DNA of 64,000 nt from Thermoplasmata archaeon (lineage in GTDB: Archaea; Thermoplasmatota; Thermoplasmata; Thermoplasmatales; GCA-001856825), in the NCBI GenBank assembly GCA_021792255.1, contig JAJYUZ010000001.1, positions 256,001-320,000 of the forward strand, written 5' to 3'. A model generated the notes under the pieces. The model made no database searches. It saw only the letters and a program-made list of their open reading frames with translations, and had not been told where the DNA came from. The stretch's first letter is position 1. Every line of letters starts with the position of its first letter. This document shows, one piece after another, positions 9,955-46,180 of this stretch. Both the position numbers and the translations under genes were made by a program.

Positions 9955-9963
9955 GTCCCTCTA

Positions 9964-21534: not shown

Positions 21535-22458
21535 TCAAAACATCTCCCAGATTTCAGGCTTGTAATCCATCGAAAGAGTAAGACCTATAGAGATTTTTAG
21601 TCTGCTATAAAATGCAAAAGCCTCAGAAATGTGCTTCATTGCACGGCTCTTCTCTAGGAAAGTTACCACCCTTAGATCATTTCCCACCTTTCTGTAAAAT
21701 ATATTGTATCTCTTGATCCCCTCAGAATCGAATAGGTTGAGGAGTACGTTAAGGGTTCCTACATCCAAGGGAACCTCGTAAATATTTGATTTTACAGCAA
21801 TTGGTTTCAATCCCGATTTTGAACCCTTTTTTCCATAGATTAACATTCGATGCTCTTTACTGTCTGAAAGGTCACTTACAACCTCCGCAATTGCTCCATT
21901 TTCGAACTCAGATTTTACGTCCTTATTCTTCAGTAATGAGAATGGAATTGCGTATTCCAGAACGTGCACCGGGAACTCTTTGTTTTTTAAGTCCAAATGT
22001 TCAATAAATCCAGTTGAGGGGAATAAGTCAAGCTCTTTCACTAGATGTTTCAAAATGTCATACTGAGTCAAGACCTCAGATATTTGAGGGATAACATTGT
22101 GATGAAACCGAAAACGAACCGTCAGCCGTCCCGTTTCAATTGTAATATTGAATGAAGTGGTGGAATCAACTTTGTTCAAGCTAGAAAGAAGATCAAAAAT
22201 AGACTTCTCTATTTGCAGGGTTGCAACAAGAAATCCTTCATTTTCAGCAGTTTGTGTTAAAAAATTAATCGACTTATTGTCTAATTCAGTGTCCAGTTTT
22301 GGAATAAATACCGACAAAATTCTTTCGCCACCTTTGGAATCAATGGATCCTTGGAAAGTATGACCCGTGGCTTTAGAAAGACTGAATGCACGATCATCTT
22401 TGTTAAAAACGATTCTGCACTCCATATCTAGAATTTTGTCGATGTCCTTTAACAACAT
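21535..22458 (-). CDS. hypothetical protein, paralog of 22554..23408
   Basis: 307-aa ORF sharing LDM, FRFH and S.G.I..LD..N...P blocks with its divergent neighbour. Confidence 0.75.
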   Translation of the reverse strand: MLLKDIDKILDMECRIVFNKDDRAFSLSKATGHTFQGSIDSKGGERILSVFIPKLDTELDNKSINFLTQTAENEGFLVATLQIEKSIFDLLSSLNKVDSTTSFNITIETGRLTVRFRFHHNVIPQISEVLTQYDILKHLVKELDLFPSTGFIEHLDLKNKEFPVHVLEYAIPFSLLKNKDVKSEFENGAIAEVVSDLSDSKEHRMLIYGKKGSKSGLKPIAVKSNIYEVPLDVGTLNVLLNLFDSEGIKRYNIFYRKVGNDLRVVTFLEKSRAMKHISEAFAFYSRLKISIGLTLSMDYKPEIWEMF

Positions 22459-22553
22459 CTAAAGTTAATCACGTCTGAAATTAATACTTATCTGAATGGG
22501 GCCCTTCTGCAGACTGGAGAATACTTATTAAATTGGACTTAATACAGCTCATA

Positions 22554-23408
22554 ATGATTTATGACATAAACAAAAGGCTCGACATGACATTTAGTCTATC
22601 TACTCCCCTGAACAGTTATGTACTTTCTACTATTGTCAAAGACAATCAAGTTCCAATCAACGTTTTTACAAACGGAAACGACATGTACTTTAGCTTCTTT
22701 TTAAGCCGGGTATCTCCAACCGATCGGGCTCTTTTAGAAACTTTTAACCCAGTACTGTTGGGCGACATCGTGGAAATTACCGAAAAGGTCGACAATCCGG
22801 TGATAAGGGCTGTCAGTGAAAACACTAACCTAGCTTCGACTCTGGCCAACGGTGAATTGTTCACAAAAGGTAGAGGGGTTTATACCAGTTTTAGATTTCA
22901 CTCGTCTCAACTGAAAGAGGTTGGCAATCTTCTTAAAGCGGTCATCTCCTTATACGAAAATATCGATGAAATAAGGATGGTCCATTCTGAGGGCATTATC
23001 AAAGTACTAGACGAAATTAATACAAGAATACCGCTATCGGCAGTTACCTTTGCCTTTACCAAATCGAGTAGTAAGAAGTTTGCCTTAGAATGGAGGAACA
23101 TTCTAAAGGACCCCTTTGGCGGAATTCTGTATGATCTAGAGAAAGATGGAAAGGTTGAAAATTATGACATGCTAAAGGAGCCGACGTCCAAATTCCTTAG
23201 GGCCCTGGACAAAGATCACATCCCGCTAGCTTCGCACTTGGAATTCCACGGTTCTGATACCGTCAAATCAATCACGCACGTCCCTAGCTTCCTTCTGAAA
23301 CCCTTTTTGGTAAGACTCTATGAAAATACAGATTCCCTTGAGGGTTTTAAAATACTCAGTATTGAAAATTATTTAGAGGAAAGGGAAAGACTTAACGTAA
23401 TTCAGTGA
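22554..23408 (+). CDS. hypothetical protein, paralog of 21535..22458
   Basis: ATG 22554 about 22 nt after TTATTAAA (leaderless-like); shares the blocks above. Confidence 0.75.
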   Translation: MIYDINKRLDMTFSLSTPLNSYVLSTIVKDNQVPINVFTNGNDMYFSFFLSRVSPTDRALLETFNPVLLGDIVEITEKVDNPVIRAVSENTNLASTLANGELFTKGRGVYTSFRFHSSQLKEVGNLLKAVISLYENIDEIRMVHSEGIIKVLDEINTRIPLSAVTFAFTKSSSKKFALEWRNILKDPFGGILYDLEKDGKVENYDMLKEPTSKFLRALDKDHIPLASHLEFHGSDTVKSITHVPSFLLKPFLVRLYENTDSLEGFKILSIENYLEERERLNVIQ

Positions 23409-23557
23409 GACCAGCTATATAGATTTCCTTAAGAATTATTTAGTTCCTATACTCAACTACCATACCCTGCTTAATTTTTCTTGCACAAGCGCGACTTTTT
23501 ACCTAAAAAAGGTCCTTGTCTTCCCTCCGAATTACTTAGCGTCAGAGAAATATATAA

Positions 23558-24658
23558 ATGGGTCATAGCCATTATTGGAATGTAATGACGGGTGAATCCA
23601 TTAACGTAGCAAGAGTGGCTGAAGAATTCGAGCTAGACAACGAATTCACTTGGGGAAGCGATGTCAAAATAACGGGAAGGTCTGGGGCAGTACATAAGTT
23701 CGACCTAGTGGTTACATCAAAGAAAGATGAGAGTATCAAGATCGCTGTCCTAAATGGTATTTCGGATGACCTTGTCAGCGACATAATGAAATTCAACGCC
23801 ATTTCCAGTGATTGTGGAATATCTCTAAAGGCGTTAGTGGTCTCGAAAGACCTTGATGATACGGAGATTAACCTTACCCAGATGTACAGTATTATTACAA
23901 TAGATCAAAGGAAGGGCCGAAGGGTAAAATCTGACGTTTTTGGGGTTAAAGATCTAGATGAGTCCCTCGGAGGGGCTATGAAACGGGGGAACGTCTATAT
24001 GGTTTCTGGGAAGACTGGAGTAGGAAAGACAACTACGTGCACCCAGTTCCTCGTTCAGGGTGCAAGGATGGGAGAGAAAGGGGCCATCATACTTACTGAT
24101 ACGAGGGGAGCCGAGTATGTCGCCAATGCCAAGACATTCACATTCGGATTCGAAGAGTATTATAAAGAAGGGACCATAGAAGTAATAGAGCTCTCAGACA
24201 GAATTAGAGAGCTGAAAGAAGAAGTCCTTGAAAGCTTAAAGAACAGATCAAAGTACATCAACAAGTTGACAGGCGAAATAAACAAGATAATCTTGGAAGC
24301 AAATATCTCGCGGTTGGCAATAGACCCTATTACGCCAATGATCGTCGAAAATGACGATTTTGTCAATCAGTTCATGATGGCCTTGGCAATACCACACACC
24401 TTCATACTGATCACGAGCCCGGTGATGAAGAGCGATGTCAGTATGTATGGAATTGAGGAATACTTTGTCTCGGGTATTATCAAACTGGAAATGGATGATC
24501 CGGCTGCGGGAATCAGGAAAGCGTCCATTGTCAAGATGAGAGGTGGTACCTACAATCCTTATCCATTCTACTACAAGATTACCCCCAAAGGAATAATCTC
24601 ATCTCAATCTGAGAGGGATTCAAAGTCTGGTTCTATTTTCAAGAGAGTGGAGTCATAG
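23558..24658 (+). CDS. KaiC/RAD55-like ATPase with N-terminal restriction-endonuclease-like domain
   Basis: Walker A GKTGVGKTT, AIDPIT Walker B, GIEEY, VKMRG Arg finger; N-terminal ITGRSGAVHKFDLVV motif; start could be 23585. Confidence 0.85.
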   Translation: MGHSHYWNVMTGESINVARVAEEFELDNEFTWGSDVKITGRSGAVHKFDLVVTSKKDESIKIAVLNGISDDLVSDIMKFNAISSDCGISLKALVVSKDLDDTEINLTQMYSIITIDQRKGRRVKSDVFGVKDLDESLGGAMKRGNVYMVSGKTGVGKTTTCTQFLVQGARMGEKGAIILTDTRGAEYVANAKTFTFGFEEYYKEGTIEVIELSDRIRELKEEVLESLKNRSKYINKLTGEINKIILEANISRLAIDPITPMIVENDDFVNQFMMALAIPHTFILITSPVMKSDVSMYGIEEYFVSGIIKLEMDDPAAGIRKASIVKMRGGTYNPYPFYYKITPKGIISSQSERDSKSGSIFKRVES

Positions 24659-24718
24659 CTTTTTCGAAGATAACACACATAATGGTATTTCTGAGCCTCA
24701 GATCACGTCAAGGATTAA

Positions 24719-27313
24719 TCATTTCTTGTACCTGAGGTACTTTCCGTCTCTGATGTACTTGCCATCCCTGACAAAAAAACTCCTTTTTTCGTGTCTGATC
24801 ATGAACGCTAATGCAATTGCCAAAAGACTTACTGCAACTGCTCCCGCGATTCCAATGAGCGCAAAATTTGGAGGAACAAGCGTCACCACAACTGCTGCAG
24901 AATTCCCACTGATTACGACTTTTCCCGTGACGTGACTTCCCGTATATCCAAATGGTGCGTTGAGGGTGTAATTGTAGGAGCCATTAGGTTCACGGAATAC
25001 TAAGAAGCTCTTTGTCGTGTTTTGAGTAGCGACGATGGAAATACCATTGAATGTTTTTCCCTCAAGGGTCACAGACCATTTTTTCCCCACAGATAGTCCA
25101 GATTGAGTTACGTTAAGCTCATAGGTGACCATTGCCCAACTAATTTGCCGAACGAGAGAACTCCCGTTAACTGTCACGTTTCCTGCGTATTCGACGGCTG
25201 AAAAACCAGCCAGGGGCTGAATCGAGTACTCAAAGCTTCCGTTACTCAACTTGAAAACTATGCTTCCATTAGTGGATATCCTGGTGTTGTTATTTACCGT
25301 TATTTCCCAAAAAGTGCCATTTGTGAGGCCAGTCTCGGCGAACATCACTTGATATGTAACCAAAATGAATGTTTCGGTCAGTTCAATTGAGTCCCCGACT
25401 ATTGAGAACGACCCACGATATGGGTCGGGACGATAAAGTTTGTACCCTGTCGAAACTGTAAAGTTATATGAGCCGTTTATTTCTGTGAATGAAATCGAGC
25501 TCAAATTGGAAGAAAAGGAAGGGCCATTAGTGACGTTGATGTACCACTGGTATTCAGGGGGCAGGTTTTGTTTACTGATTGTGACATTGAACAATTTATA
25601 GAACGTCAAGGGAGAGCTTGACGGATAAGGTGATACTGGTCCGCCGTTGACTGTGAAATTTCTTGAGGTCTCGAACGGAAGAAGTGTGTACCACTCACTA
25701 TTGACAGAGACGTTGTAAGTATACGTACCGTTTGGTTCCATAAATGAAATTGTGTTGGTCTTTGAGTTGTAGTATTGGGGGTCAGTGATGTTCAGGTACC
25801 AGGTCAGGTTTCCAGGTTGACTTAGGGGCAGGCCTGTTTCATAGAACGACACTTCATAGATCCTTAAGAAAAGTAGGGCAATGGAGACCGGTAGACCAGA
25901 GACTTTGAATGTGCCGTTAGAAGGGAATGGACCATACGTGGAGATTCCGCTCCTCACAGTGTAGAGATACGTACCATTGGGGAGCGTAAGGGAAATGGTC
26001 TGGGTCGTTGATGAAACCTGCGTAGAATTTGAATTGTTAACAGTCACGGACCAACTTGACCCTGAGGGTAACCCCGTTTCGGTAAATTCTATTTCGTAGG
26101 TTAATAGGTTAAAAGCGATAGGTACGGAGATAGATTTACCGTTGACCAAAAATGAACTTAATAACAACGGGGTGGGATAATAATCCTTATCAGCGGTCGA
26201 AATCGTAAACGTGTAACTCCCGTTCGAAAGATTTGCAATTATTATCGAGGAGTCGGATGAGAGAGACGGTTCTCCAGTTATATTTACGTACCAATATGTA
26301 CCAGCCGGAAGTTTTGAGTTGTTTAGCTGTACAAAGCTTACTTGGTAGAGTTTGGGATAGAAATTTATTGCAACAGAATAACTGCCACCACTGATCACGA
26401 ACAGTCCAGAGTTGGGATTAGGGTAGTAATTCCTATCGCCAGATGCTATTGTGTAGTGATACGTACCATTCGGCTCGTAGAACAGATTAATACTGCCGAC
26501 AATGGGAAAACTCTGACCATTTGTAAGATTAACATACCATTTGTTTCCAGATGGAAGTCCAGTCTCTTGAAAAATGACTTGATACTTCACCAGAACTGCC
26601 GTAATCTGAGCTGTATTGGATTGGTTAGTAATAGTTGTTGGTGAGCCGTTTGAAGTCCCCATATCACTGACATCTACCCAGAAGAAGTAAGTGGCATTTC
26701 CGGTCGGAGTGAAAGTGTAAGAGGACGTCGTTACGTTGGTTTTCGTCCCGTTTAGATACCAACGATAGGTAAAATTTCCGGTACCGCCAGTGACCGTCGA
26801 TTGAAGCGTTAATGTCTGCCCCACGTTGATCGTTTTGCTTGAAGGCGAAATGCTCACAGAAGGAGCTGAATCGACTGTGACACTTGCATTACTTGAAATC
26901 GCTGACTTGCCCTCACTCGTTACATTGACATAAATGATGTAACCTCCTGGAGAGGGGGGAGTAAACAAATATTTGGAAGAAGTCGTACCAACGACGGGTT
27001 TACCACCCAAGTACCAGGTGTACGTGTAACTCAGAGATTGATTAGAAGTGGTCGCGGTAATCGTTACGGATTGACCAATATCTAGTATTGAACTCAGGGG
27101 AGAAATTGATACTGTAAAGCTTGTAAGCATGTGCTGTGCTAGTTGAGATGGACTGGATAATGGGCGACCATTGTCACTGTGGGCTGCAGTTGGAAAAATC
27201 TGATTCGGTGTTGTCGAGATGAAAGCATTAGTAAAACTTGACATCAAAATGAATGTTACAACTGCGATCGTAAGAACCACAAGCTTCCGTTCCGCACTTA
27301 CATTCATTTTCAT
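24719..27313 (-). CDS. membrane-anchored surface glycoprotein: 2 PKD/Ig-like plus 7 thermopsin-type repeats
   Basis: Signal peptide, Y.V.F.ETGL..G..W...NG.Y repeats, many N-x-S/T sequons, C-terminal TM and basic tail. Confidence 0.88.
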   Translation of the reverse strand: MKMNVSAERKLVVLTIAVVTFILMSSFTNAFISTTPNQIFPTAAHSDNGRPLSSPSQLAQHMLTSFTVSISPLSSILDIGQSVTITATTSNQSLSYTYTWYLGGKPVVGTTSSKYLFTPPSPGGYIIYVNVTSEGKSAISSNASVTVDSAPSVSISPSSKTINVGQTLTLQSTVTGGTGNFTYRWYLNGTKTNVTTSSYTFTPTGNATYFFWVDVSDMGTSNGSPTTITNQSNTAQITAVLVKYQVIFQETGLPSGNKWYVNLTNGQSFPIVGSINLFYEPNGTYHYTIASGDRNYYPNPNSGLFVISGGSYSVAINFYPKLYQVSFVQLNNSKLPAGTYWYVNITGEPSLSSDSSIIIANLSNGSYTFTISTADKDYYPTPLLLSSFLVNGKSISVPIAFNLLTYEIEFTETGLPSGSSWSVTVNNSNSTQVSSTTQTISLTLPNGTYLYTVRSGISTYGPFPSNGTFKVSGLPVSIALLFLRIYEVSFYETGLPLSQPGNLTWYLNITDPQYYNSKTNTISFMEPNGTYTYNVSVNSEWYTLLPFETSRNFTVNGGPVSPYPSSSPLTFYKLFNVTISKQNLPPEYQWYINVTNGPSFSSNLSSISFTEINGSYNFTVSTGYKLYRPDPYRGSFSIVGDSIELTETFILVTYQVMFAETGLTNGTFWEITVNNNTRISTNGSIVFKLSNGSFEYSIQPLAGFSAVEYAGNVTVNGSSLVRQISWAMVTYELNVTQSGLSVGKKWSVTLEGKTFNGISIVATQNTTKSFLVFREPNGSYNYTLNAPFGYTGSHVTGKVVISGNSAAVVVTLVPPNFALIGIAGAVAVSLLAIALAFMIRHEKRSFFVRDGKYIRDGKYLRYKK

Positions 27314-27487
27314 GATAACATTTATCTACAAATTATATCGAAGTATTTAATAATTATTTTCGTCGTATTGCCGTCCACAATGCATCTTGTGAAATCATCA
27401 CTACATAGTTTGGTCAACTTAGATACAAAGTCGTTCATTATTAAAGATGGAGTGTGGAAAAAAGAGGGCAGGTTCATTTCAAGCTCT

Positions 27488-30400
27488 TCATTTATTACCC
27501 TTAACCTTCTTAATCTTGAGGGGACTTCCCTCCCTCTTGAACAGACTCTTTCTACTGACCATAATATAGAAGACCAGGACAGCCACGATCACGGCAATTG
27601 CTGCTATTATAATCGATATCAGAAGATAGTTAGGCAGCGGAGTCACCTTCAAACTGGTTGTAACAGCATCCCCGACGACAGTGATGCTCCCCCTGACTGG
27701 AGTTCCCTGATAGCCCTGTGGGAGTGTGACTACATAAGAATACGAACCATTGGTCACGTAAAAGGTAATGGAATCTGTGGTGGAGTTTATAGTCTGAACA
27801 TTCTCCTGTCCACTTTGAGTGATCGTAGTCACAGTAACGGACCACGTTGCACCGGCTGCTAGACCGGTTTCGATTACCGTCACGGGATAAGTCACCGCAG
27901 TCCACGTTATCGTATTCTTGAAATTACTTCCGTTCACTACCACAGTTATCTGATAATCCTGTGTTTTGTATCCCGCCAATCCACCTATAGTGAAATTATA
28001 GGTACCGTTGACCTCGTTGAAAAAGATCGAGCCAGTAGAAGATCTAGTTACATTACCACTCGTGCTGACGAGCGTAACGTTCCATTTCATTCCAGAAGGC
28101 AGACCAGTTTCGGGGAACGATATGTTGTAGAGAAATGGCGAAAATGTGATCCGTTCAAAGGTAGGGGCTCCACTCACGGTGAACGTCCCACCATAGGAGA
28201 AGTATATCTTGTTCGAAGTCTCAATAATATAAGAATATGTTCCATTTGGTTGGACGAATTCCAAACTACCCCCAGTGGAATTGTAAGTCTGACCACTCGA
28301 TAGGTTGACAAACCACATCGTACCGAGGGGAAGTCCTGATTGACTGAAAGAAACGTTATAGCTCAGTAAAGAAAACTGAACGGAATCCGATGTCGGACTA
28401 CCAGCTACGGTAAATAATGATGAGAACACAACGGGTTTGTACTGTTTGTTGGCTGTGGCTAACGTGTAGGAAAATGTTCCATTGGACAGCGTAAAGGTAA
28501 TCACGCTGAAAGTTGAGGAATAAGACTGTCCGTTGGAAAGGTTCACAAACCATTCCGTTCCTGTTCTCAGCCCAGATTCAGAGAAGGTCACCCAGTAAAC
28601 GACCGGCAAGAAGACGAGAGATTGGGAGACCGTGCTACCGCTGACAGTGAACGAGAATGAGCTCACAGACTGCGATGACAACTTGTATGTCTTGTTTCCT
28701 GTCGAAATCGAATAAGAATATGTGCCGTTGGGTTCGAGGAAATTTATGTTATTAGAGACCGAGGAATACGTATTCCCGTTAGTGATGTTGACAAACCACT
28801 TCGTACCGAGGGGAAGACCAGTTTCGGAGAAAGTGACACCGTAGATAAGTTTGGTCAGAACTGTGACGCTGATTATGTTTGAGTGTACATACGCAGGGTC
28901 AGTGTTTATGTCCGTCACGTTAACATAGAACAGGTAGATGCCCGGCAGGGTAGCCGAAGAGGTAACAAACCTGTACGTCGAATTTACTGCACCGGCTACG
29001 ACCTGGAACGAAGTAGTGCCCGGCAATTGCACGTACCATTGATACGAGAACGCTCCAGATCCTCCACTTATTGAGACGTTAAGAAGGGACGAGTTTCCCC
29101 TGTCTATCACGGAAGACAACGGATTGGTCAGAGAAAGGGATCCAGACAGTTGACTGTTTACTACAAAGGTGACAGTGACTGATGCTGTTGCACCGTCTGC
29201 ATCGGTGGCAATAAATTCTACGGTATAGTTCCCCCTGGCGCTGAAAGTAATAGCGGTCCCTGAAATGGTATAATCACCAGCGGCAGAACCACCAGATGGA
29301 TACATGCCCACTAGCCAGGAATAGCGGTACGGAGGGGTTCCTCCGACAACGTTGCCATTTATGGATTGACCGACATCAGTCTGAATAGTTCCCGTGACTC
29401 CAAAGGAAGCCTTGGGGAGTGGATTTACGATTATGGTTAACGGAGAGGCTTTAGCAGACGAGTTGCCCTCAGTAACGTTAAACCAAATTTTGTAAAGGCC
29501 CGGAGTAGAGACGTTTAGGGAATAGGTGCTGGAATTTCCTACAATACCAGACACACCTCCTATCCCCCACGAGTACGAATATGAACCGGTACCTCCCAGC
29601 ACTGTTGCCTGGAAAACCTGGGCGTGGTTTACGTCTATTGCGGTTACGCCGGCAGACGGGTACGAGGAAATAGAGGCAGTCAGGCTGATGATTGCTGAGA
29701 CAGCTACATTGTAACTAGTCGATGTAGCGGAAGAATACGAATCACTAACCGCTACCTTGACGATGTAGTTGCCTGACTTGCTGAACGTCACTTGATTTCC
29801 CGAGGTGTTATAGTCTCCCGTCGCTGATCCCCCATTTGAAAGAGTCACTGTCCAGGAATAACTGAAAGGAGGAGTCCCATACCCTGATTCTACTGACGCG
29901 ACAACAGGGCTCCCGACACTCGTCGTTGCAGGGCTGATAGATATCGAAGACTGAGCAATATCGCCGTTTACCTTGACCTCCTGGTAAACGTCTCCCGTGT
30001 CTCCGACTATAGTATCCTTGACGTAGAGAAATACATAAAAAGTGCCCGACGTGCTTGAGGTAAAGGTATAGGATTGAGGAGAAGCCCCGGATGTGTACCC
30101 TGTATTGGGTGCGGAGGGTGTCGACGAATTCTGCAACACCCATTGATATTCATAGGAACCACTACCTCCACCAAAACTCCCAGTGATGGATTGGCTCTGT
30201 CCTGCGTCGATGGTCGGAACCGACGACGGAGAGGTGATCCTCACTATTACTAGACTGCTGGAATATATTTTGACCGTAGTATTGTTGTACGCAACCCTGC
30301 CGTCCGAGTCCCTAAGTTTTAGGCTCAACGTGTAATTCCCGGATTGACTCAATCCGATCTGGTGACCGTAATATGTCACAGGAGAGGAAGATCCATTTTC

Positions 30401-39400: not shown

Positions 39401-41257
39401 GGTCGCATTAATCGGACTTCCGACTGTCGTGATCGTAGGAGAGATCGAAATTGCGGATGAAGTTAGTGGCTGTGACGGGTGAAGGACTATTATCTCAGCC
39501 GTCGCAACTATGGCAAGACCATCGTCGCCATCCTCATCGTTGTTTGGGGGGGTATTCCCAACGTGATTATTTACAAAGAGGTAAAGATAATAAATGCCGT
39601 AACTCGATGGAATGTAGGTGAAACTTGCACTTGGCTGCGAAGTAGAATTCACGCTGTTAAATGACCTGAATCCTTGCTGCCAGTGAGGGAAATTTGTCGT
39701 GACGTACCACACGTAGGTATACGGCGAAATTCCTCCAGTCCAGTTTGCATTAAAGTTCAAGATTTCACCGATGTTCGAGTCCACTGTAGTCGGGGTCAGG
39801 GTTACCTGACTCACGGTGGGTTCCGGGTTCTTCTTAGAATCCACCTGTGAGACTGCCATCACATAGGCCGCAGAACTAGTACTGTCGACAAACAAATAAA
39901 CGTAATATCTACCATTATCGGAAGGAACAAAACTGAAAGTCGCAGAGTTCTTGCTCGTGTAATTGTATGAGTTAAATTGCAAAATGTATGGAGTCTGAAT
40001 AGTGTCCTTATGTGTGACCATCCAAACATAGGAGTAGGGTGCTGTTCCCCCCGTCCAGTTGCCAGTGAAGATTATCGGGACTCCCGCTTCCGAGTTAGCG
40101 TTGACCGAACTTGGCGATATCGTAAGAGATGAGACTCCTGGTGTTCCCGGCATTAGTACTATCTGAGCGTACGCAACAAGTGAATCCTGCTGGTAGCTGG
40201 AGCCGGGGCCCGTCGACGGGGTGACATAGAGATATAGGTAGAATATTCCGTACGATCCATACTGGGGATTGAAAGTGAAACTCGTGGAAGTATCTGTAGT
40301 GACGTTGTAGTTGTCAATCTGGTTTTTGTCACCCTTGTAATATAACTTCCACTGATTCTGGTCGGTAGTCACGACCCACGCATAATTATAAACATTAGAG
40401 CTTCCCGTCCAGTTCCCGACAAACGTTATTGGGCGGCCTAGATACATTACGGTAGTCGAAGGGGCTAGTGTCACGTTTTGTAGAGAGTACTGATTGTTCT
40501 TGTCTTTGTGACTCTGAGGTTGTTGTTGGACTGAAATGACCGCGCCAGCGCTGAGCCCACTGCCAGAGGTAGATCCATTAACGGTTAGGCTTATGAGGTA
40601 TGTATTAGGATGGTCAGGAGTAAAGTTGAAGTCTGCCGAGTTTAAAGAGCTAGAGTTGTTATAATAACTGGCGTACACTCTATCGGAAGAGGTCTGAGTC
40701 ACATTCCAAACATAACTGTAGGGAGATTGTCCACCAGACCAGACCGCCTTGAGTTCGAGCGTTTGACCTACATATAAGTTGGAAGATGTGGGAGAGAGAG
40801 TGATAGAAGTAAGAGAGTAACTCTGAGTTACGTTAAACGTACTCCCTGAGCCGTGCGTGTCCATCGAGGTGGAATAATTTCTACCAACGGTAGCAGCAGA
40901 AAAACTAGAGAACTTCTCCAAAAGCGTGTTCGTCTGAGAAGATAAATTTCTTGATCCTAGAGAGGCACCGGAGGATTGACCTGCACCGGAAGAAGAACTG
41001 CTCAAATAACTTCCTGAGGCAGTTGCTGGGGCAGGCCAAGTCTTTACTACCTTCCCATTTTGTACATCCTCGAAATAACTAGAATTCTGACCTCCCACTG
41101 TCGTGGTAACGAGATAAATGTGACCGCCGCTCGAGCCTGACGAAGCTGCAGTGTTAGATGAGTAAAAGGCACTCGAAAATGACGTTGAAAGCATCAAGAA
41201 AACTACTGCTACGGCTATCCCTACCATGAATCCTTTTGCGAACTTTCTGGTTATCAA
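27488..41257 (-). CDS. giant (~4,590 aa) Ser/Thr-rich surface protein: ~42 PKD/Ig-like modules, 5 thermopsin-type repeats, C-terminal TM anchor
   Basis: Uninterrupted 13.8-kb ORF; signal peptide RKFAKGFMVGIAVAVVFLML; repeated P.S.TID.GQ...GG.G.FS.SW modules. TTG 41257 lies ~23 nt after TTTATA and is the likelier start (track start 41290). Confidence 0.9.
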   Translation of the reverse strand: MITRKFAKGFMVGIAVAVVFLMLSTSFSSAFYSSNTAASSGSSGGHIYLVTTTVGGQNSSYFEDVQNGKVVKTWPAPATASGSYLSSSSSGAGQSSGASLGSRNLSSQTNTLLEKFSSFSAATVGRNYSTSMDTHGSGSTFNVTQSYSLTSITLSPTSSNLYVGQTLELKAVWSGGQSPYSYVWNVTQTSSDRVYASYYNNSSSLNSADFNFTPDHPNTYLISLTVNGSTSGSGLSAGAVISVQQQPQSHKDKNNQYSLQNVTLAPSTTVMYLGRPITFVGNWTGSSNVYNYAWVVTTDQNQWKLYYKGDKNQIDNYNVTTDTSTSFTFNPQYGSYGIFYLYLYVTPSTGPGSSYQQDSLVAYAQIVLMPGTPGVSSLTISPSSVNANSEAGVPIIFTGNWTGGTAPYSYVWMVTHKDTIQTPYILQFNSYNYTSKNSATFSFVPSDNGRYYVYLFVDSTSSAAYVMAVSQVDSKKNPEPTVSQVTLTPTTVDSNIGEILNFNANWTGGISPYTYVWYVTTNFPHWQQGFRSFNSVNSTSQPSASFTYIPSSYGIYYLYLFVNNHVGNTPPNNDEDGDDGLAIVATAEIIVLHPSQPLTSSAISISPTITTVGSPINATVESGYGVAPFSYSWAVTTSSGQPAPGDYSTTGNQIVFNTPGTYTVTVTVTDANGVTASLTETVTINSLLSATISVSGLTTLDSGQSATLILTSVGGGITPYKGQWLEEPPLASSFLNLTNQFYISPTDLSAASVSTGILTTTGTWAFEFEITDSTSKVATSAPVTITVNPELSVSLSSPVGTQVGAGSSITFTNITQGGTEPYTYSYSVSPSTGWTQSSNPGNTFTFTSTGNYIVTLSVEDAASSIVSSSLTVTVVSPLTVQVQPQSYSIDPGQVFITLTTTVEYGSGSYTWQWYSGSPGSGVAISGSSGSGATSTYTPTQNGTYYVVFKDSSGQSVTTNGAVVKENQLPIVSLLPSSPTIDTSQSLVLSSSVSGGSGSFSYSWTIGGSQVVVGTATTLSFTEDTAGTYKVWLNVTDTGTSPDYSLSPVSITITVDSSPTVSVSPASATIDLSQSLLLTATVNGGSGLYSYSWTIGGSPSVVGTSSTFSFTESSARTYTVWLNVTDTGTYSPLVVSAKVPIAVNVYPSVSVQPKSATIDSGESITITSTAVDGTGPFSWQWYDSSGKISGASGTGLTASQTFSSADTGVYVVFTDTGTTSGASPTATVASSTVSVVVDGSLSISVQPSSGSIDAGQTITLTSTVSGGTGTFSWSLYTSSNSLINSGTGATASYQFSPTTTTSYYFVFTDTGVTLGATPAATATSNQATITVYTVPTVTVSPSSAIVDTSQSLLLTSSVNGGSGSFSYSWTIGSSSTVLGTKSSYSFTQTTSGTYRVVLTVTDSITSYTFSSTASLTVYVSPSISSQPSSVTIDSGQSITITSTAVGGTGSFSWQWYDSSGKISGASGTGLTASQTFSSADTGVYVVFTDTGTTSGASPAATASSSNVAVTVDNSLTVSTQPSSFTINSGQSVTLTSTVSGGTGTFSWSLYTSLNTRVASGTGATASYQLSPATTTSYYFVFTDTGVSSGATPIATAKSNSATVTVNSAPTVTVTPSSAVIDAGQSVALVSTVSGGSGSFAYSWSINGSSTVVGQSPSYTFSLATPDTYKVWLNVTDTGTTPNYAFSPVSVTITVESALSISSQPTSATIDSGQSISPTSTVSGGTGKYSWQWYDSSGPITGDSGTGSVATATFSSGDTGIYVVFTDTGTSSVATPSSMVKSSVVTVTLDSALSISVQPLSGTIDSGQSITLTSTVTGGTGTYSWSLYTSSNFLVASGTGSKASYLLSPTTTTSYYFVFTDTGVTSGATPVSTLSSSNAPVSVNPPLSPSVSPSSATLTLGQSQTFTSTTSGGSGKYTYAWTISGSTTVVSTTNAYTFSESSTGSYKIWLNVTDVGTTPPYTLSVSVTVQVNPGTLSVTFVTNTPSSGSGSLDVGQSLSLSVTPTISGGVLPYSYQWYLNGTSGGSKIGLSGPATSGTAISHFFAPVGKGTYLFYLQITSSDGQSSTTGAITVTVFAAPSISSQPSSVTIDSGQSITITSTAVGGTGSFSWQWYDSSGKISGASGTGLTASQTFSSADTGVYVVFTDTGTTSGASPSLTATSSKASVTLDSAITISVQPKSTSINSGQSVTLTSTVSGGTGTFSWSLFTSSNSVVASGTGATASYQLSPATTTSYYFVFIDTGVSSGAFPVASATSTSATITVTLAPTVSVSPSSAVLDTGQSVTLASSTSGGTGQFSYFWSIGGSSKVVGTGSTYKFYGTTAGPFVVWLNVTDVGTTPNYQLSPAEVSITVDSVPTVTISPSISSIDSGQSITLTSSVSGGTAQFIYSWSVNGNPMNIVNTATSVSFSEATSGTYVVWLNVTDTGTYSAFVFSTTARVTVYAAPAISVQPTSSTIDSGQSVTLTSTVSGGTGTFSWSLFTSSNSVVASGAGATASYQLSPTTTTSYYFVFTDTGVTLGATPAATATSNQATITVNTQPTVTITPSSSQIDVGQTISLTSSISGGSGSFSYSWSIGGSSAIVGKEKSYSFAGSSARAYKIYLNVTDNSTQYVFSTTVSVVVDPSLSVSVQPTSTIVDAGQSVTLSSTVNGGTGTFSWSLYTSSNSLVTSGTGKVASYAFNPQSNGSYYFVFTDAGVTSGASPLSTAKSNSASVVVNSDPKVTVLSTTVGSGSSATLTATASGGTGVGYAFKWYSNSALTNLLYSGNPFKTPALTSTTTYYVTVVDSTGTVSSTTSVTVTVVSSLTSSSLTVTPATTDVGFAISVTVSSGAGVPPYSYSWTVTLYPSGSASGYYSTSGNKVTFTKAGIYSVTATVKDSAGETASITKTITVNTLPSVTITPSSATIDVGASVTFSNSSTGGTAPTTYGWGYPSGSGITHVGNLFNFTNTGNFTIKLYVNDSLGASGFAVATISVNSQPIIVYSSLNVTISAAATMDSGTSTNISITSITGTGPYTAQLKAEAPGSTTFSVIATTTQFSTFPEKVGTGSLTTIGEWHFVVVATEVDNTGITGTSSPITVNVVNALTSSALSISPTNPDIGSPVSVSVQSGYGTLPFVYLWTVTLSGGGSASGDYTSSGNQITFNTGGAYSVTVKVVDEDGLSASISAIITVNAPLSITISAVTPTTVDNGQTVTFSNSVSGGTGTYTVGYSVSSLGGGIKFGAYSISGNTITFSLAGQYDVSSVVTDSLGDTVTSTNSITVTVNALPTVSISPSSTTIDTGNSVTFTNTTVNGTQPYTYIWSYPSGQGITQAGNTFTFADTGNFTITLTVVDSVGVVASSSALITVNPSPIIVLQPGSSSGVQSATNSSQYGSGLQPLIQEQKKTFGGSSDPTITLDQGTPWVVTVQSGTGTPPFTFSWIVNYSSNNTPAKDYTLGSSNSNYVDNVLTFTGTGNYFVFIKVEDKYGATSTETVGIDVSSPLVVNFTIQATASSLDVGNSTSLSSTLKIKGGTPSYSYQWYRNGTSSGDKISGTNASGRFNNSTLSLLQTPTVPGNYTYYLVITDSAYSPASNSTLLLVTVNRLPTTSSIVISPTSTVIDGLINATVKPGYGTAPFNYTWTVAPENGSSSPVTYYGHQIGLSQSGNYTLSLKLRDSDGRVAYNNTTVKIYSSSLVIVRITSPSSVPTIDAGQSQSITGSFGGGSGSYEYQWVLQNSSTPSAPNTGYTSGASPQSYTFTSSTSGTFYVFLYVKDTIVGDTGDVYQEVKVNGDIAQSSISISPATTSVGSPVVASVESGYGTPPFSYSWTVTLSNGGSATGDYNTSGNQVTFSKSGNYIVKVAVSDSYSSATSTSYNVAVSAIISLTASISSYPSAGVTAIDVNHAQVFQATVLGGTGSYSYSWGIGGVSGIVGNSSTYSLNVSTPGLYKIWFNVTEGNSSAKASPLTIIVNPLPKASFGVTGTIQTDVGQSINGNVVGGTPPYRYSWLVGMYPSGGSAAGDYTISGTAITFSARGNYTVEFIATDADGATASVTVTFVVNSQLSGSLSLTNPLSSVIDRGNSSLLNVSISGGSGAFSYQWYVQLPGTTSFQVVAGAVNSTYRFVTSSATLPGIYLFYVNVTDINTDPAYVHSNIISVTVLTKLIYGVTFSETGLPLGTKWFVNITNGNTYSSVSNNINFLEPNGTYSYSISTGNKTYKLSSQSVSSFSFTVSGSTVSQSLVFLPVVYWVTFSESGLRTGTEWFVNLSNGQSYSSTFSVITFTLSNGTFSYTLATANKQYKPVVFSSLFTVAGSPTSDSVQFSLLSYNVSFSQSGLPLGTMWFVNLSSGQTYNSTGGSLEFVQPNGTYSYIIETSNKIYFSYGGTFTVSGAPTFERITFSPFLYNISFPETGLPSGMKWNVTLVSTSGNVTRSSTGSIFFNEVNGTYNFTIGGLAGYKTQDYQITVVVNGSNFKNTITWTAVTYPVTVIETGLAAGATWSVTVTTITQSGQENVQTINSTTDSITFYVTNGSYSYVVTLPQGYQGTPVRGSITVVGDAVTTSLKVTPLPNYLLISIIIAAIAVIVAVLVFYIMVSRKSLFKREGSPLKIKKVKGNK
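33663..33768. repeat. 106-bp intragenic direct repeat (second family)
   Basis: Identical to 37272-37377 by eye. Confidence 0.85.
34797..35031. repeat. 235-bp intragenic direct repeat, copy 1
   Basis: Matches 36768-37002 with one mismatch; 34815-34939 also identical to 37608-37732. Confidence 0.9.
36768..37002. repeat. 235-bp intragenic direct repeat, copy 2
   Basis: Offset 1971 bp from copy 1; 36522-36586 matches 34551-34615 at the same offset. Confidence 0.9.
37608..37732. repeat. 125-bp partial third copy of the same repeat
   Basis: Identical to 34815-34939 by eye. Confidence 0.85.
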
Positions 41258-41623
41258 TCGCTTGCATAGTTCAAGAAGGTATAAAAACATTTATATTGAA
41301 TAAGGGAGATGTAAGTGTACTTAAATTTGTGTTTGAGCTCGTATTAGACGGGCTCTCTGGAATGAAGTGAATTATGCTTATTTAATAGCATTATTGACAA
41401 ACTGAAATTCCGTTCTAACTATCAAACTTTTTTTGGAAAAAATCAAATCGATTAGTGGAGCTTATTCGACAAAAGATGTACTGCAAGTAAAACTATTGTC
41501 AGTAATTGCTGTGCGCGGTGGACCGCTTCCTATCAGATTTGTAGACTCTGGAGAGAGTATATCTGCCAACCGGTTCTAACGTCTCTTGGCCAAACTTAAA
41601 TATTATACATGCTATCTACGAGC

Positions 41624-44600
41624 GTGAAATCTAGAAAATTCACAATAGCCACACTAGTACTAATCATTTTGACATCTCTAATTCTAAGTTCGTCCTCGAA
41701 CGTCATAGGATCCGCAAATGAAGGAGGAGTGACCCGTCAGGCGCCTATTTCCTCTTCATCGATGGCAACTGGTCCTTATGCCGGTCAGTCGGTAATTTCT
41801 AACGCCACTTCTATATACAAGGAAAGCACCTCTAATGCTAAAAACTACCTTCCCTCTTTTAATTCTTCGGGAGTACCGATTGGCTCCTTTAACGTACGGA
41901 ACAGTTCTGCGACGCTTTATTCAGTCAGCTTCGAGGTCACTAACAAGGCAAGTGGAGTGGACTGGAGCGTCTACGTCTACACCAATCTTTCGCTAGCCAT
42001 ACCGGATCTTCCTCTCTACAATTCACTGAATCACGAAAGTTATGGCTTGGTATTCTCGGGCTCTAGCTCTTCTTCCACCATCACCGGATCAATATCTTCC
42101 GGAACTTACTATTACTATACTGGTCCCACTTCCACCCTTACTGGTCCTTATGAAATGACAGTATCTGGAACGCAATTGGTGACTGTTACCTTCCCTGCGT
42201 TTTATACGGCCTCTTTCACCGAGACCGGATTAAATGTCGGTACATCGTGGAGCGTGTACGGAACTGCAACCCTTCCGAACGACAGGATGACTATTCTTTC
42301 GGAGACAGCTGCAACCTCGACGATCTCCGTGTCGGTCCCAAATGGGTATTACAGTTTTGCATATGGAGTAAGTTCTACTGTAATAGAGTCTTATCCGTTT
42401 CTTATTTCAGGATCCAACATCACTAGACAGATTTCCATGCCATCATTTTATGAAATAACATTCCGGGAATCTGGATTGACTGCAGGAATTCAATGGCAGA
42501 TATCTGGGCAGTCCCTGACACCCAATCAGTATTCCCTCAACGACTTCTTCACCGTCACCTCGACCTCAAATTCCACTACAGCCCAAGTACCGAATGGTGT
42601 GTACTTCTACGAACCATCTACGGGACAGACCACAATGTCAACCTCATCTTCCATTTACGTCGAAGGAGGTAGCCAGACAATCTCGGTAGTCTTTCCTGCA
42701 ATGTACGCCGTTGTCTTTAATGGTATAGGCTATAGGTCGGGTATTGACTGGCAGGTTTCAGCATATTCTACGGACGGTAAGTTTTCATCCACGAATTATA
42801 GCACCTCTCCGACTTTGAAGCTCGAGCTACCGAATGGCGATTACACTTATACGGCAGGAGAAGGGGGATCCAACCTCCTCAGTGGCACATTTAATGTGTC
42901 CTCGTCCAACTATTCATCTAAAATCACTTTCCCTCAAACGTACCTGTTGAATTTCTCGGAGACTAATCTAGCTAGTGGAATGGGCTGGGGAGTGACTGTC
43001 TACGGGGCCAATCACACAACCGTCTTCTCAAACACCACGCTAGGCACCCACATTTCCATTTATCTCCCGACTGGAAAATACGACTATTCAGTTTCGGAAA
43101 GTCCTTTTGCTACTGTCCTGTACCAACAGGACCAGTCGGTATATTCATCGTCCTCTTTTTCGATTGGAAACTACCAGCTGAATCTCTCAGTAGCATTCCC
43201 TAGACTCGTATCTGTCACGTTTACAGAATCCAACTTAAGAACTGGAATTGCCTGGGGACTGGGTGTATACTCATCCGCCTCCCCCACAAAATTCTCAGAG
43301 ATCTTTTACAACACATCTTCTGTCTATGACAGCGTGGACCTATACCTCATCAACGGGACATTTCATTATTCTGTTGAAGAGGCGGGTGCTTACATCTATC
43401 CTTCGACATCCACATTCAACGTTTCTGGATCTCAACTGTCCGAGGTATATCACTTCCCGTCCCTCTTTTTAACGTCATTTTCTATAACTGGGCTGAAGGC
43501 CTCTACCACCTGGTCTTTAATAGTAGACGAGTCGAATTATTCTGTCATTTACTTTAATTCTTCAGCGTCTTCATTCATGCAAGCATATCTCCCAAATGGG
43601 TCCTATAACTACTCTGTCACTACTACGTCCCATCTTTCGACCAGTTCATCATTCTCAGTTTCCGGTACCGGACTTACCGTTCCTGTGACTATTACCTCAA
43701 CTTACTCAATCACATTTACCGAAACTGGACTACCGTCAGGCACTCTCTGGTACTTGTCTGTAAATGGAGTCTACAGCTTCTCCTCAAACGACACGATCCA
43801 AATAGTCGAACCAAACGGAACGTACAAATATTCCATCATCAGTTCAAGTTACACCGCATCACCCAGCAATGGAACCCTCGTAATTGCAGGAAAGGCTATC
43901 TCGATTACCATCACGTTCAACCAGACCGAAGCCACGTACTCCGTCACTTTTTCAGAAACGGGACTCGCAAATGGAACTGTCTGGTCCGTGACAATTTCGA
44001 ATTCAACGGAGAGTTCGGTACATAGCTCAATAACGTTACAAGAACCAAATGGGACATATACGTACGAAATAAACGCAAGTGGATTTACTCCTTCCCCCTC
44101 TGCCGGTCTGATCTCGGTTAATGGAGCTGGCCAGACCATTTCGGTAGCGTTCGCACCCACTAAACCTGTCCCCAAGTACAACGTTACCTTCTCAGAGACA
44201 GGACTGTCCATCAATACTTTGTGGACTGTCTCACTGACAAATTCGACCAATGCAGGGAAGGTCATTGACGTGATTAGCACTGTTAAGGGAAATATCGATG
44301 TGTACGGAATAACCTATGATAGTTCCAACAGGTACCTGTATGTCTCGGGTGTTGCACAGAATTCTACTTCCGCTTCCAATTATCCTGGGGTGGTCCTAGT
44401 GATAAGCCCCATCACCAACACCGTGATCAATACGATTTCCGTGGGCTCACTTCCAGAATCCAGCGTGTACGATCCATACAACGGTTACTTGTACGTTGCA
44501 AACGCACTATCCAATAACGTATCTGTGATTAACACGGTGACTCAATCTGTAATCGCAACTACACCGGTAGGCAATCAGCCAGTCGGAATTGCGTACTCGT

Positions 44601-46180
44601 CCATGAACCACGACGTTTACGTCGCAAATGGGGCTTCGGGCACTGTCTCAGTGATAAGCAGCGCGTCTAATGTGGTCCTTTCGACGATTGTCCTTGGTTC
44701 ATCCGGACAGACACTTGCTGGAGCAGTGTTTGATCCTTCAAACGGGAACCTGTACATAGGTGGATTTAACAATGTCTCGAAGACAGATAGCGTCTTCGTG
44801 ATAAACACCCTCACAAACGTTGTGGTGTCGGAAATAAATGGTGCCGCCTACTTTGGTACTTACGATTCCTTTAACGGGTACATATATTTCACCGACAATT
44901 CCCTTAATTCTGTTCTTGTAGTCGACGGCTCGACCAACCAGGTTGTTACTACTATAGATCTCCCGTCCCATTCATCACCCATAGGGCTGACGTACGATTC
45001 CTTCGATCACAACATTTACGTCGCTGAACAAAACTCGAGCTCGCTGGCAGTCATAAGTTCACTTACCAATACGGTGATTGCGAACCTGGATGTCACGGGA
45101 TCTCCGCTCTTTCCTACGTACGTTCCCTCAAATCACGACATTTACGTTTCGAACCATTTGGTGGGCGGAATTCAAGAAGTCTCTTCTTATGGTGGACAAA
45201 GCTCAGTACAGTCATCGACGCTCGACACAGTACAGTTTTCAGAGCCAAATGGCACCTACTCTTTCAGCATCGGGAGCATCAACGGCTATACCGTGAATCC
45301 CCAGTCTGGATTCCTGACCATTAAGGGCTCCGCGGTCGATGAAAGTGTTGCATTTTCCGTGGTAATCGGGTACGAGGTAACTTTCTCTCAGATCGGACTC
45401 CGAGCTGGTGTATCGTGGTCCGTGACCCTGGGTGCGAGTACTCAAAAATCCACCTCGCCTAGCGTGACTTTCACTGAAACAAACGGTACCTATTCGTTCG
45501 AGATAGCCAACGTTTCTGGCTACGTAGTTTCCCCAACTGCCGGGGTAATAACCGTGAGCGGCTCCTCGATCACAAAGACCATTACCTTTTCTGAAGTGTT
45601 CACGGTAAACTTCATTGAGTCTAATCTGCCCGTTGGAGCAACGTGGACCGTGACTCTAGCTGGAGTAGCCAAGTCCTCTGGAACAAACACGATAACCTTT
45701 GGGGAACTCAACGGATCGTATACTTACTCGGTAAACTCTTCAAATAACTATACGGCGTCTCCCTCGTCGGGTACTATTATCGTCAATGGTGCCACGTTGA
45801 ACCAGACTGTTCAATTCTCTCCCGTCCAGATCCCGCTGTTCCTCACAGGCACCATCAGCCCGGCCAATGCCACCCTGTACATCAACGGTCAACGGGTTTC
45901 CACAATAAATGGAACGTTCAACGTCTCGATTAATCCCGGGAGCTATGATATAAAGGTCGTTTTAAGTGGATACGTTACATACTATCGCAACGTTACCGTG
46001 ACTTCTAATCAGACCAATGTATCTGCCCTTACCATCACTCTTACCAAGGTAACTCCGCCATCCCCACTGTCAACCACCGAAATCGTCATCATAGCCGTCG
46101 TGGCAATAGCGATAGTTGCAGCCGTCTCGATGTCAATAGTCAGGTCACGTAAGAGAACTGAATCGAAGCGCAAAGAGTGA
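41624..46180 (+). CDS. surface protein: 12 thermopsin-type repeats, YVTN-type beta-propeller, PEGA-like domain, TM anchor
   Basis: Signal peptide; YDPYNGYLYVAN..SNNVSVIN blades; PANATLYING PEGA-like motif; C-terminal TM and RSRKR tail. GTG 41624 follows TTAAATA (track start 41609). Confidence 0.88.
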   Translation: MKSRKFTIATLVLIILTSLILSSSSNVIGSANEGGVTRQAPISSSSMATGPYAGQSVISNATSIYKESTSNAKNYLPSFNSSGVPIGSFNVRNSSATLYSVSFEVTNKASGVDWSVYVYTNLSLAIPDLPLYNSLNHESYGLVFSGSSSSSTITGSISSGTYYYYTGPTSTLTGPYEMTVSGTQLVTVTFPAFYTASFTETGLNVGTSWSVYGTATLPNDRMTILSETAATSTISVSVPNGYYSFAYGVSSTVIESYPFLISGSNITRQISMPSFYEITFRESGLTAGIQWQISGQSLTPNQYSLNDFFTVTSTSNSTTAQVPNGVYFYEPSTGQTTMSTSSSIYVEGGSQTISVVFPAMYAVVFNGIGYRSGIDWQVSAYSTDGKFSSTNYSTSPTLKLELPNGDYTYTAGEGGSNLLSGTFNVSSSNYSSKITFPQTYLLNFSETNLASGMGWGVTVYGANHTTVFSNTTLGTHISIYLPTGKYDYSVSESPFATVLYQQDQSVYSSSSFSIGNYQLNLSVAFPRLVSVTFTESNLRTGIAWGLGVYSSASPTKFSEIFYNTSSVYDSVDLYLINGTFHYSVEEAGAYIYPSTSTFNVSGSQLSEVYHFPSLFLTSFSITGLKASTTWSLIVDESNYSVIYFNSSASSFMQAYLPNGSYNYSVTTTSHLSTSSSFSVSGTGLTVPVTITSTYSITFTETGLPSGTLWYLSVNGVYSFSSNDTIQIVEPNGTYKYSIISSSYTASPSNGTLVIAGKAISITITFNQTEATYSVTFSETGLANGTVWSVTISNSTESSVHSSITLQEPNGTYTYEINASGFTPSPSAGLISVNGAGQTISVAFAPTKPVPKYNVTFSETGLSINTLWTVSLTNSTNAGKVIDVISTVKGNIDVYGITYDSSNRYLYVSGVAQNSTSASNYPGVVLVISPITNTVINTISVGSLPESSVYDPYNGYLYVANALSNNVSVINTVTQSVIATTPVGNQPVGIAYSSMNHDVYVANGASGTVSVISSASNVVLSTIVLGSSGQTLAGAVFDPSNGNLYIGGFNNVSKTDSVFVINTLTNVVVSEINGAAYFGTYDSFNGYIYFTDNSLNSVLVVDGSTNQVVTTIDLPSHSSPIGLTYDSFDHNIYVAEQNSSSLAVISSLTNTVIANLDVTGSPLFPTYVPSNHDIYVSNHLVGGIQEVSSYGGQSSVQSSTLDTVQFSEPNGTYSFSIGSINGYTVNPQSGFLTIKGSAVDESVAFSVVIGYEVTFSQIGLRAGVSWSVTLGASTQKSTSPSVTFTETNGTYSFEIANVSGYVVSPTAGVITVSGSSITKTITFSEVFTVNFIESNLPVGATWTVTLAGVAKSSGTNTITFGELNGSYTYSVNSSNNYTASPSSGTIIVNGATLNQTVQFSPVQIPLFLTGTISPANATLYINGQRVSTINGTFNVSINPGSYDIKVVLSGYVTYYRNVTVTSNQTNVSALTITLTKVTPPSPLSTTEIVIIAVVAIAIVAAVSMSIVRSRKRTESKRKE

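Follow-up and report, generated by a model that had tools for sequence, protein, structure and literature searches.

In the window analysed here, a 64,000-nucleotide stretch of a Thermoplasmata archaeon genome, some 25 kb (positions 21535-46180) carry two genes of the Ta1207 family, the gene of an ATPase in which a single KaiC domain follows an Mrr-like N-terminal domain, and the genes of three surface proteins of 864, 4600 and 1523 amino acids (aa). These 25 kb are probably two juxtaposed units that are neighbours by descent, namely a KaiC/Ta1207 module derived from a locus with a family 2 glycosyltransferase (GT2) and a genus-specific cluster of surface-protein genes. The first unit (21535-24658) would be a cytoplasmic module in which two divergently encoded Ta1207 proteins, with repeated ferredoxin/ACT-like folds, accompany the Mrr-KaiC ATPase. 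It would descend from a Ta1207 - KaiC - BcsA-like GT2 - Ta1207 cassette of acidophilic Thermoplasmatales, in which the KaiC gene abuts or overlaps the gene of a membrane-embedded, PilZ-less and presumably processive glycan synthase. In these relatives, nucleotide-dependent switching or assembly of the exopolysaccharide synthase would be the most likely job of the module, for which a regulatory role is suggested throughout; in the window's genus, a duplicated KaiC copy would then have lost the GT2. The second unit (24719-46180) would be a genus-specific cluster of three type-I anchored surface proteins with a divergent promoter region of its own.

The KaiC-like ATPases rank with the most abundant archaeal regulators that still lack an explanation, and for Ta1207 a structure has been solved but no function assigned. 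The recurrent cassette provides a concrete, testable client for both, and it is a candidate for control of a cellulose-synthase-type enzyme that is independent of cyclic di-GMP (c-di-GMP) and of PilZ. New here are the BcsA-like GT2 as a conserved third partner, the fold of the N-terminal domain, the history of the paralogs and the conserved tails of the adhesins. The giant-adhesin neighbourhood itself represents inheritance at the level of the genus and cannot be taken to show a system; only the conserved tails could still join the two units.

The features of the locus are as follows, with positions counted from the first nucleotide of the window.

21535..22458, minus strand: Ta1207-family protein 'a', 307 aa (PF19020)
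22459..22532: AT-rich spacer of 74 bp between the divergent Ta1207 genes, presumed to be a shared promoter region
22533..23408, plus strand: Ta1207-family protein 'b', 291 aa (PF19020)
23558..24658, plus strand: Mrr-like N-domain and single KaiC-domain ATPase, 366 aa, or 357 aa from the likely start at 23585 (PF06745)
24719..27313, minus strand: 864-aa membrane-anchored surface protein with an Ig-like N-terminal part (Ig_3), stalk repeats, a transmembrane helix and a 26-aa tail
24722-24799, minus strand: conserved 26-aa cytoplasmic tail of the 864-aa protein, read from the sequence
27488..41290, minus strand: 4600-aa membrane-anchored giant surface protein with Ig_3/PKD arrays, stalk repeats, a transmembrane helix and a tail
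27491-27556, minus strand: cytoplasmic tail of the 4600-aa protein, read from the sequence
41291..41608: spacer of 318 bp between the divergent 4600-aa and 1523-aa genes, presumed to hold the promoters of the surface unit
41609..46180, plus strand: 1523-aa membrane-anchored surface protein with stalk repeats, a YVTN beta-propeller, PEGA, a transmembrane helix and a short, plain basic tail

An earlier note, made from the DNA letters and their open reading frames (ORFs), had placed six ORFs at these coordinates with these architectures, and the ORF listing bears it out.

The GT2 cassette in relatives

The KaiC fusion was searched for in 120 genomes of the order, Thermoplasmatales, and a census of the whole species collection gave 40 KaiC-fusion loci; the loci were annotated with profiles built for this analysis. 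Two groups of genomes carry most of the argument, the window's own genus (g1) and another family of the same order (f3). In f3, a membrane GT2 of ~500 aa directly follows the KaiC gene in 12/12 loci, and a Ta1207 gene lies no more than 1.5 kb upstream in nine of them, slightly farther in two more, with the last locus beginning at a contig end. Of five fully resolved loci, three have a 4-nt overlap between the KaiC stop and the GT2 start, and in the other two the gaps are 1 and 37 nt. The same arrangement extends to more distant homologs in the census (35-41% identical), where 11 of 12 loci have the GT2 directly after KaiC. Ta1207 genes adjoin KaiC-fusion genes in several genera, and in six GT2 loci of the census they stand on both sides, which completes the four-gene Ta1207 - Mrr-KaiC - BcsA-like GT2 - Ta1207 cassette (L131, L128, L130, L132, L134 and L135, from several Thermoplasmatales genera).

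The GT2 matches the Pfam families Glyco_tranf_2_3 and Cellulose_synt, gives no match to PilZ and possesses a QQWRW motif. Its best NCBIfam model is CelA, at 178 bits and thus below the cut-off of 699, and its nearest solved chains are those of BcsA (5ej1 and 4hg6, E 5e-33 to 7e-33). When the window is set against the cassette, Ta1207 is found beside Mrr-KaiC, with both copies upstream, but the position downstream of KaiC is taken by the convergent 864-aa gene instead of a GT2. A literature search combining KaiC-like ATPases, arCOG and glycosyltransferase retrieved no relevant paper.

Relatives of the three surface proteins were not found in five f3 contexts of 17-20 kb, and none of the 40 census loci has an adhesin neighbour outside the window's clade. 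The earlier note had joined the KaiC fusion and the Ta1207 pair to the adhesins as their control module, and had named distance from large surface-protein genes in other genomes, together with a lack of co-regulation, as the finding that would speak against it. As to distance, outside g1 this is what the gene neighbourhoods give, because GT2 follows KaiC in 12/12 f3 loci and 11/12 distant loci and large surface proteins are absent nearby. Of that proposal the conserved module stands, but its belonging to the adhesins is not supported, since its usual partner is a BcsA-like GT2.

The KaiC fusion in the window's genus

Three kinds of KaiC fusion, here called copies A, B and C, occur in g1. Copy A, the window type (65-85% identical), has a convergent 864-aa ortholog in 13/13 loci and Ta1207 upstream in 11/13; in the census, an adhesin lies beside KaiC in 11 of the 12 loci of the window's clade, and the twelfth ends at a contig end. 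Synteny in g1 extends, wherever contigs allow, over the entire block from the short-chain dehydrogenase through to Memo, housekeeping flanks included. Within it, identity to the window proteins is 79-85% for KaiC, 77-88% for GTP cyclohydrolase II, about 50-66% for the adhesins and 44-57% for the Ta1207 proteins. Two g1 species are without the Ta1207 pair at the locus; PF19020 was not found in one and reaches 20.7 bits in the other, and one of the two has different upstream neighbours as well.

Copy B (44-51% identical) is located on another contig of the window's genome (G000:C7:65916-66980(-); locus L066, 9908-10981; 48% identical), where an MFS transporter and a DUF998 protein are encoded alongside it and no Ta1207, GT2 or stalk protein is nearby. 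Copy C was found in two species (loci L053, L084 and L085) and encodes a protein of ~540 aa in which the Mrr-like N-domain is duplicated; the next gene is a GT2 sharing 67-68% identity with the GT2 of an f3 genome. One of the copy-C species has a further KaiC with a duplicated N-domain beside a Ta1207 pair.

In a maximum-likelihood tree of 33 KaiC fusions with a midpoint root, copies A and B fall inside a clade of GT2-linked branches whose sister clade is also GT2-linked. Most simply, this reads as an ancestral GT2 link and a derived adhesin neighbourhood with a single origin. In five g1 genomes no close copy-A KaiC was found, and a search of them with the 864-aa protein gave only paralogous stalk matches, in three of the five, that end before the tail; because these genomes are 61-87% complete, the joint absence of KaiC and the 864-aa ortholog may be an assembly gap.

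The KaiC fusion ATPase

Residues 129-347 match the KaiC domain PF06745 at 127.7 bits against a cut-off of 26.6. The AlphaFold2 (AF2) model of the fusion has a predicted local distance difference test (pLDDT) score of 81.7 and superposes on the C1 domain of KaiC (5yz8_A) with Z 24.1 and a root-mean-square deviation (rmsd) of 2.8 over 211 residues; PH0284 (2dr3_A, Z 23.2), FlaH (4yds_A, Z 21.8) and 2w0m_A (Z 21.7) are the other fold matches of this domain. In an alignment with 22 homologs, Walker A (GKTGVGKT, G151-T158) and the Walker B residue D256 are invariant. The Glu-Glu pair that is catalytic in KaiC, after strand 2, corresponds here to T180-D181-T182, in which D181 is invariant, and this residue may substitute for the pair in the predicted ATPase. 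With its single KaiC domain and a score of 35.7 bits for NCBIfam circ_KaiC, whose cut-off is 546, the protein is not the circadian, double-domain KaiC. Nor does it belong to ArlH/FlaH, for which its 26 bits fall short of the cut-off of 215, and its neighbours are Ta1207 and surface-protein genes. The C-terminus of the family is conserved, reading S-(I/F)-F-K-(R/K)-V in the window's clade.

The modelled topology of the N-domain, a-bbb-a-b-a-b, is that of restriction-endonuclease-like proteins. Residues 12-121 match AF1548 (1y88_A) with Z 10.9 and rmsd 2.8 over 101 residues, and the nuclease domain of Can2 (7bdv_A) with Z 10.0; the whole-model fold searches hardly probe whatever lies outside the dominant domain. 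The description of the protein in the earlier note as a fusion of a nuclease domain with KaiC thus holds at the level of the fold. Pfam Mrr_cat does not match the fusion itself, and among 22 sequences the catalytic PD-(D/E)xK residues are not conserved, D49 being replaced by N, S, Y or E and strand 3 having no conserved ExK. Given this variation at the expected catalytic Asp, the domain is probably non-catalytic, and a role in sensing or docking is more likely than one as a nuclease.

Among 1.84 billion representatives, an exhaustive phmmer search at E<=1e-3 returned the N-domain in only 16. Its credible relatives besides the KaiC fusions have the matched stretch inside Pfam Mrr_cat (P0042 and P0045), and an atlas look-up returned Mrr_cat and PDDEXK_3 as weak leads (0.82-0.85). 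Ig-rich matches (P0039, P0044 and P0046) were judged spurious. P0041, P0042 and P0045 combine Mrr_cat-like domains with PilB-type T2SSE/MshEN ATPases or with a REC-TackOD1 response regulator, and such fusions hint at a general sensor or docking role for the nuclease-fold domain. As for the start of the gene, database gene models give 357 aa and begin at M10 (23585), and a TATA-like run at 23548-23557 lies ~30 nt upstream; M10 is likely the true start.

The Ta1207 pair

Both proteins encoded upstream of KaiC belong to PF19020 (Ta1207), with 136 bits for 'a' and 96.4 bits for 'b' against a cut-off of 26.3. They are 14% identical to each other, and their genes stand head-to-head, 74 bp apart; no other PF19020 copies were found in the genome. 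The earlier note had called them two unknown paralogs, and they are paralogs indeed, but the family is named and has a solved structure. The AF2 model of 'a' (pLDDT 88.7; predicted template-modelling score 0.87) matches 5m86_A at a Foldseek E of 4e-14 and TMq 0.72, and with VIA Z 23.5 over 292 residues, at ~10% sequence identity. Its other fold matches, at Z<=8.5, are ACT/ferredoxin-like regulatory domains and reflect merely a common arrangement. A profile of 40 family members finds PDB 5M86 ("Ta1207", an entry of ten chains) at E 1.8e-4, an entry that a single-sequence phmmer search of the PDB sequences with 'a' missed. The alignment of the family has no invariant column, which argues against an enzyme.

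Orthologs of 'b' in g1 are 47-54% identical. In a sample of 151 genomes of the class, PF19020 was found in 12, namely 11 of the 12 f3 genomes and the window's own, and only 3 of the 28 Ta1207 loci lie within 1.5 kb of a KaiC fusion, most copies being elsewhere. A literature search for 'Ta1207' yielded no paper in the library searched, nor any relevant structure paper. Three genomes (G091, G141 and G148), in which the Mrr-KaiC fusion was not detected, have an expanded family, with 12-14 matches per genome and arrays of at least six copies in ~12 kb.

The giant surface proteins

As read from the sequence, each of the three surface proteins has a hydrophobic, signal-like N-terminus and ends in a hydrophobic helix with a basic tail, the architecture of export signal and C-terminal anchor that the earlier note had described; all are rich in N-x-S/T sequons. 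The 4600-aa protein matches Ig_3 at 227.7 bits, PKD_3 at 128.6 and PKD_4 at 78.5, and the 864-aa protein matches Ig_3. The 1523-aa protein matches TIGR02276 at 79.5 bits and PEGA, with a YncE-like YVTN beta-propeller at residues 897-1167 (~44297-45109). The proteins appear to be adhesin- or matrix-like, with a putative adhesive function; the cell that bears them is probably without a wall.

That the three share stalk repeats, as also claimed earlier, can be seen from the motif [FYVIL]x[EQ][STN]GL, which occurs five times in each and so accounts for 15 of the 46 genome-wide occurrences in 510,592 aa of ORF segments of at least 150 aa. The label 'thermopsin-type' for these repeats is not confirmed, for no Thermopsin family of Pfam is matched at E<=0.01 by the whole proteins or at E<=5 by two stalk segments; the repeats match no Pfam family in either search. 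Stalk-repeat proteins form a multigene family, with at least five further loci in the window's genome. In sister genera, 2-27 stalk-repeat matches were counted in five genomes, and the KaiC fusion was found in 0/7 genomes.

Two irregular gene models were met among the relatives. At L067, the ortholog of the 4600-aa protein is split into two overlapping ORFs (1526-6634 and 6216-15395; 1702 and 3059 aa), for which a frameshift, a faulty assembly and a true interruption of the gene are all conceivable, and in another relative the KaiC gene is in two pieces (L047 and L107).

Competing interpretations

Several observations weigh against keeping the two units apart, and they bear on an unlikely alternative in which the KaiC fusion and the Ta1207 pair, re-wired from a glycan synthase, control the surface proteins, for example by docking on the tails of the 864- and 4600-aa proteins. 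Copy A adjoins the 864-aa gene in every one of the 13 g1 loci, including those of two species where other genes stand in place of the Ta1207 pair and of the upstream neighbours. Conserved tails are present only on the two adhesins nearest KaiC. The core of the 864-aa tail, (K/N)RS(F/L)FVR(D/E)G(K/R)Y (RSFFVRDGKY in the window), is common to nine Ta1207-bearing g1 species, and with a pairwise identity of 0.75 against 0.62 for the ectodomain this tail ranks in the top 5% of 26-aa windows. In the 4600-aa tail, the window and five of the six g1 orthologs for which the C-terminus is available have the core KSLFKR(E/D)G in common. Short basic tails are all that is found on the 1523-aa protein, where the SLFK motif is lacking, and on three further stalk proteins of the genome. 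The common core, S-[LF]-F-[KV]-R, resembles the S-[IF]-F-K-[RK]-V of the KaiC C-terminus, and the GT2 C-termini end P-[AV]-F-[KI]. A motif chosen post hoc, S[LIF]F[KVR][RK], occurs genome-wide within the last 50 residues of 13 of 4487 stop-to-stop segments of at least 80 aa, and three of the 13 are KaiC and the two adhesins. In the two species that lack the Ta1207 pair, and only in these, the 864-aa tail reads differently (RSIL..RRDP); because these are sisters in the tree, the covariation is a single contrast, confounded with phylogeny. The direction of change favoured here, with the GT2 lost, depends on the midpoint root of the KaiC tree, and the absence of a GT2 ortholog from the window's genome (best match 24.5 bits, none at E<=1e-8) means 'not found' only, because the genome is 93.55% complete. 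Set against control of the adhesins are the single evolutionary origin of the adjacency, which no other lineage among the 40 census loci repeats; the convergence of the KaiC and 864-aa genes, with 60 bp between their stops, and the separate, divergent 318-bp spacer of the surface genes; the synteny of the whole block, housekeeping flanks included, within the genus; the GT2 as the conserved partner elsewhere; and the multigene nature of the stalk proteins, which are also found in the sister genera where no KaiC fusion was found. A complex prediction for KaiC, both Ta1207 proteins and the last 30 residues of the 864-aa protein gave a best score of 0.20, the mark being 0.32, for an assembly of four chains, run without controls, whose 30-residue partner of uncertain fold is unlike the calibration of the tool; the score counts neither for nor against a link. 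In all, the tails are suggestive but weak evidence for a link between KaiC and the adhesins. It is conceivable, though quite unlikely, that Mrr-KaiC/Ta1207 is a portable cytoplasmic switch for the surface-matrix machines of wall-less acidophilic archaea, that it docks on short hydrophobic-Phe-Lys/Arg tails in juxtamembrane or C-terminal position, and that its client, in most Thermoplasmatales the PilZ-less BcsA-like synthase, was swapped in this genus for two giant adhesins mimicking that tail, which, if true, would amount to ATP-dependent inside-out control of adhesion or biofilm formation.

Two further alternatives concern the module alone. It might still serve glycan synthesis through a non-orthologous glycosyltransferase or glycosylation machinery, so that the heavily glycosylated proteins next to it would be there by chance or would feel its effect at most indirectly. 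The ancestral link to a processive GT2, the wealth of N-x-S/T sequons in the surface proteins and the presence in the window of genes for a 262-aa GT2 and a GT1 glycosyltransferase (11411-13390) agree with such a role, but these glycosyltransferases lie ~8-10 kb off with unrelated genes in between, the 262-aa GT2 has no match of the cellulose-synthase type, and no membrane synthase ortholog was found in the genome; this appears very unlikely. It is hardly credible that the module is a defence system against viruses or a conflict system of another kind, with a nuclease-fold sensor, an ATPase and fast-evolving, copy-variable partners. Its points of contact with defence are the PD-(D/E)xK fold of the N-domain, the lower identity of Ta1207 orthologs than of KaiC, the Ta1207 arrays described above and weak PADLOC matches of the KaiC fusion (mads_8, 21.1 bits; PDC-M24B, 17-19 bits). 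Against it, the candidate catalytic D49 varies, KaiC keeps a stable operon with the glycan synthase across genera, the locus of the window lies among housekeeping chromosomal genes, and PADLOC gave no strong match to the fusion and none to either Ta1207 protein.

Comparison with known systems

Read as one of two units that are neighbours by descent, the KaiC/Ta1207 module can be compared with several known systems. With the archaeal single-domain KaiC-like ATPases (PH0284/PH0186, SSO2452 and ArlH/FlaH), which Makarova et al. reportedly proposed in 2017 to be signalling ATPases of membrane machines, it shares one RecA-type domain and an intact Walker A. It differs from them in its rare Mrr-like N-domain, in the absence of an archaellum operon, and in its Ta1207 and, in relatives, GT2 partners. 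The Ta1207 proteins share the family, and 'a' in its model also the fold, of Ta1207 of Thermoplasma acidophilum (PF19020, 5M86), but at ~10% identity, and most members of the family elsewhere are not beside KaiC.

The GT2 of the relatives is BcsA-like. In BcsA systems the synthase works with PilZ and c-di-GMP and with BcsE, BcsQ and BcsR, whereas the GT2 here is only ~500 aa, has no PilZ and has KaiC and Ta1207 as neighbours; the window and its genome further differ in that no such GT2 was detected. The model of the KaiC domain matches chain E of the E. coli Bcs macrocomplex 9fnn with Z 14.2, a precedent for a RecA-like fold beside a cellulose synthase. This chain is presumably BcsE. The N-domain shares with the PD-(D/E)xK sensor or effector domains of Can2/Card1 and AF1548 its fold, with Z 10-11 over ~100 residues, but has neither a Pfam Mrr_cat match nor a conserved catalytic Asp.

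For the second unit, giant Ig/PKD-repeat adhesins provide the parallel, with a signal-like N-terminus, Ig_3/PKD arrays, a beta-propeller and a C-terminal anchor. The proteins of the window depart from them in stalk repeats that fall outside Pfam and in the conserved cytoplasmic tails on two of the three.

Chromosomal setting and further observations

The locus is flanked on one side by genes for a GNAT acetyltransferase, GTP cyclohydrolase II and a short-chain dehydrogenase, and on the other by genes for an S15 peptidase, an M24-like protein and Memo. Farther out lie ordinary chromosomal genes, including those for FtsZ, ribosomal proteins, enolase, PPDK, eRF1 and ArgG/H. A type I phosphodiesterase gene accompanies those of the 262-aa GT2 and the GT1 glycosyltransferase at 9964-13390, ~8-12 kb upstream of the module. 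G+C content is 0.48-0.52 within the giant gene (28000-40000) against 0.39-0.45 around it, and because the region is syntenic across the genus this rise probably reflects the composition of the repeats, rich in Ser, Thr and Gly, rather than a foreign origin.

A scan of the window for promoters and terminators gave counts at shuffle expectation, the models being bacterial and not applicable to an archaeon. No DNA tandem repeats with a score of at least 200 were found in 24700-46200, the protein repeats having diverged at the DNA level. Relatives of the KaiC fusion, no more than 55% identical and without Ta1207, GT2 or adhesin neighbours, also occur at four loci labelled Micrarchaeota or Micrarchaeaceae (L116, L122, L124 and L136), which could be symbiont-host gene transfer or a binning error.

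In the communities of acid mine drainage, surface proteins and exopolysaccharides of this kind matter for attachment and biofilms. Eleven sequencing runs, none of them listed as RNA, contain DNA of the stretch itself; they come from three studies labelled as metagenomes of mine drainage, mine tailings and sediment, and seven of them may be the source sample.

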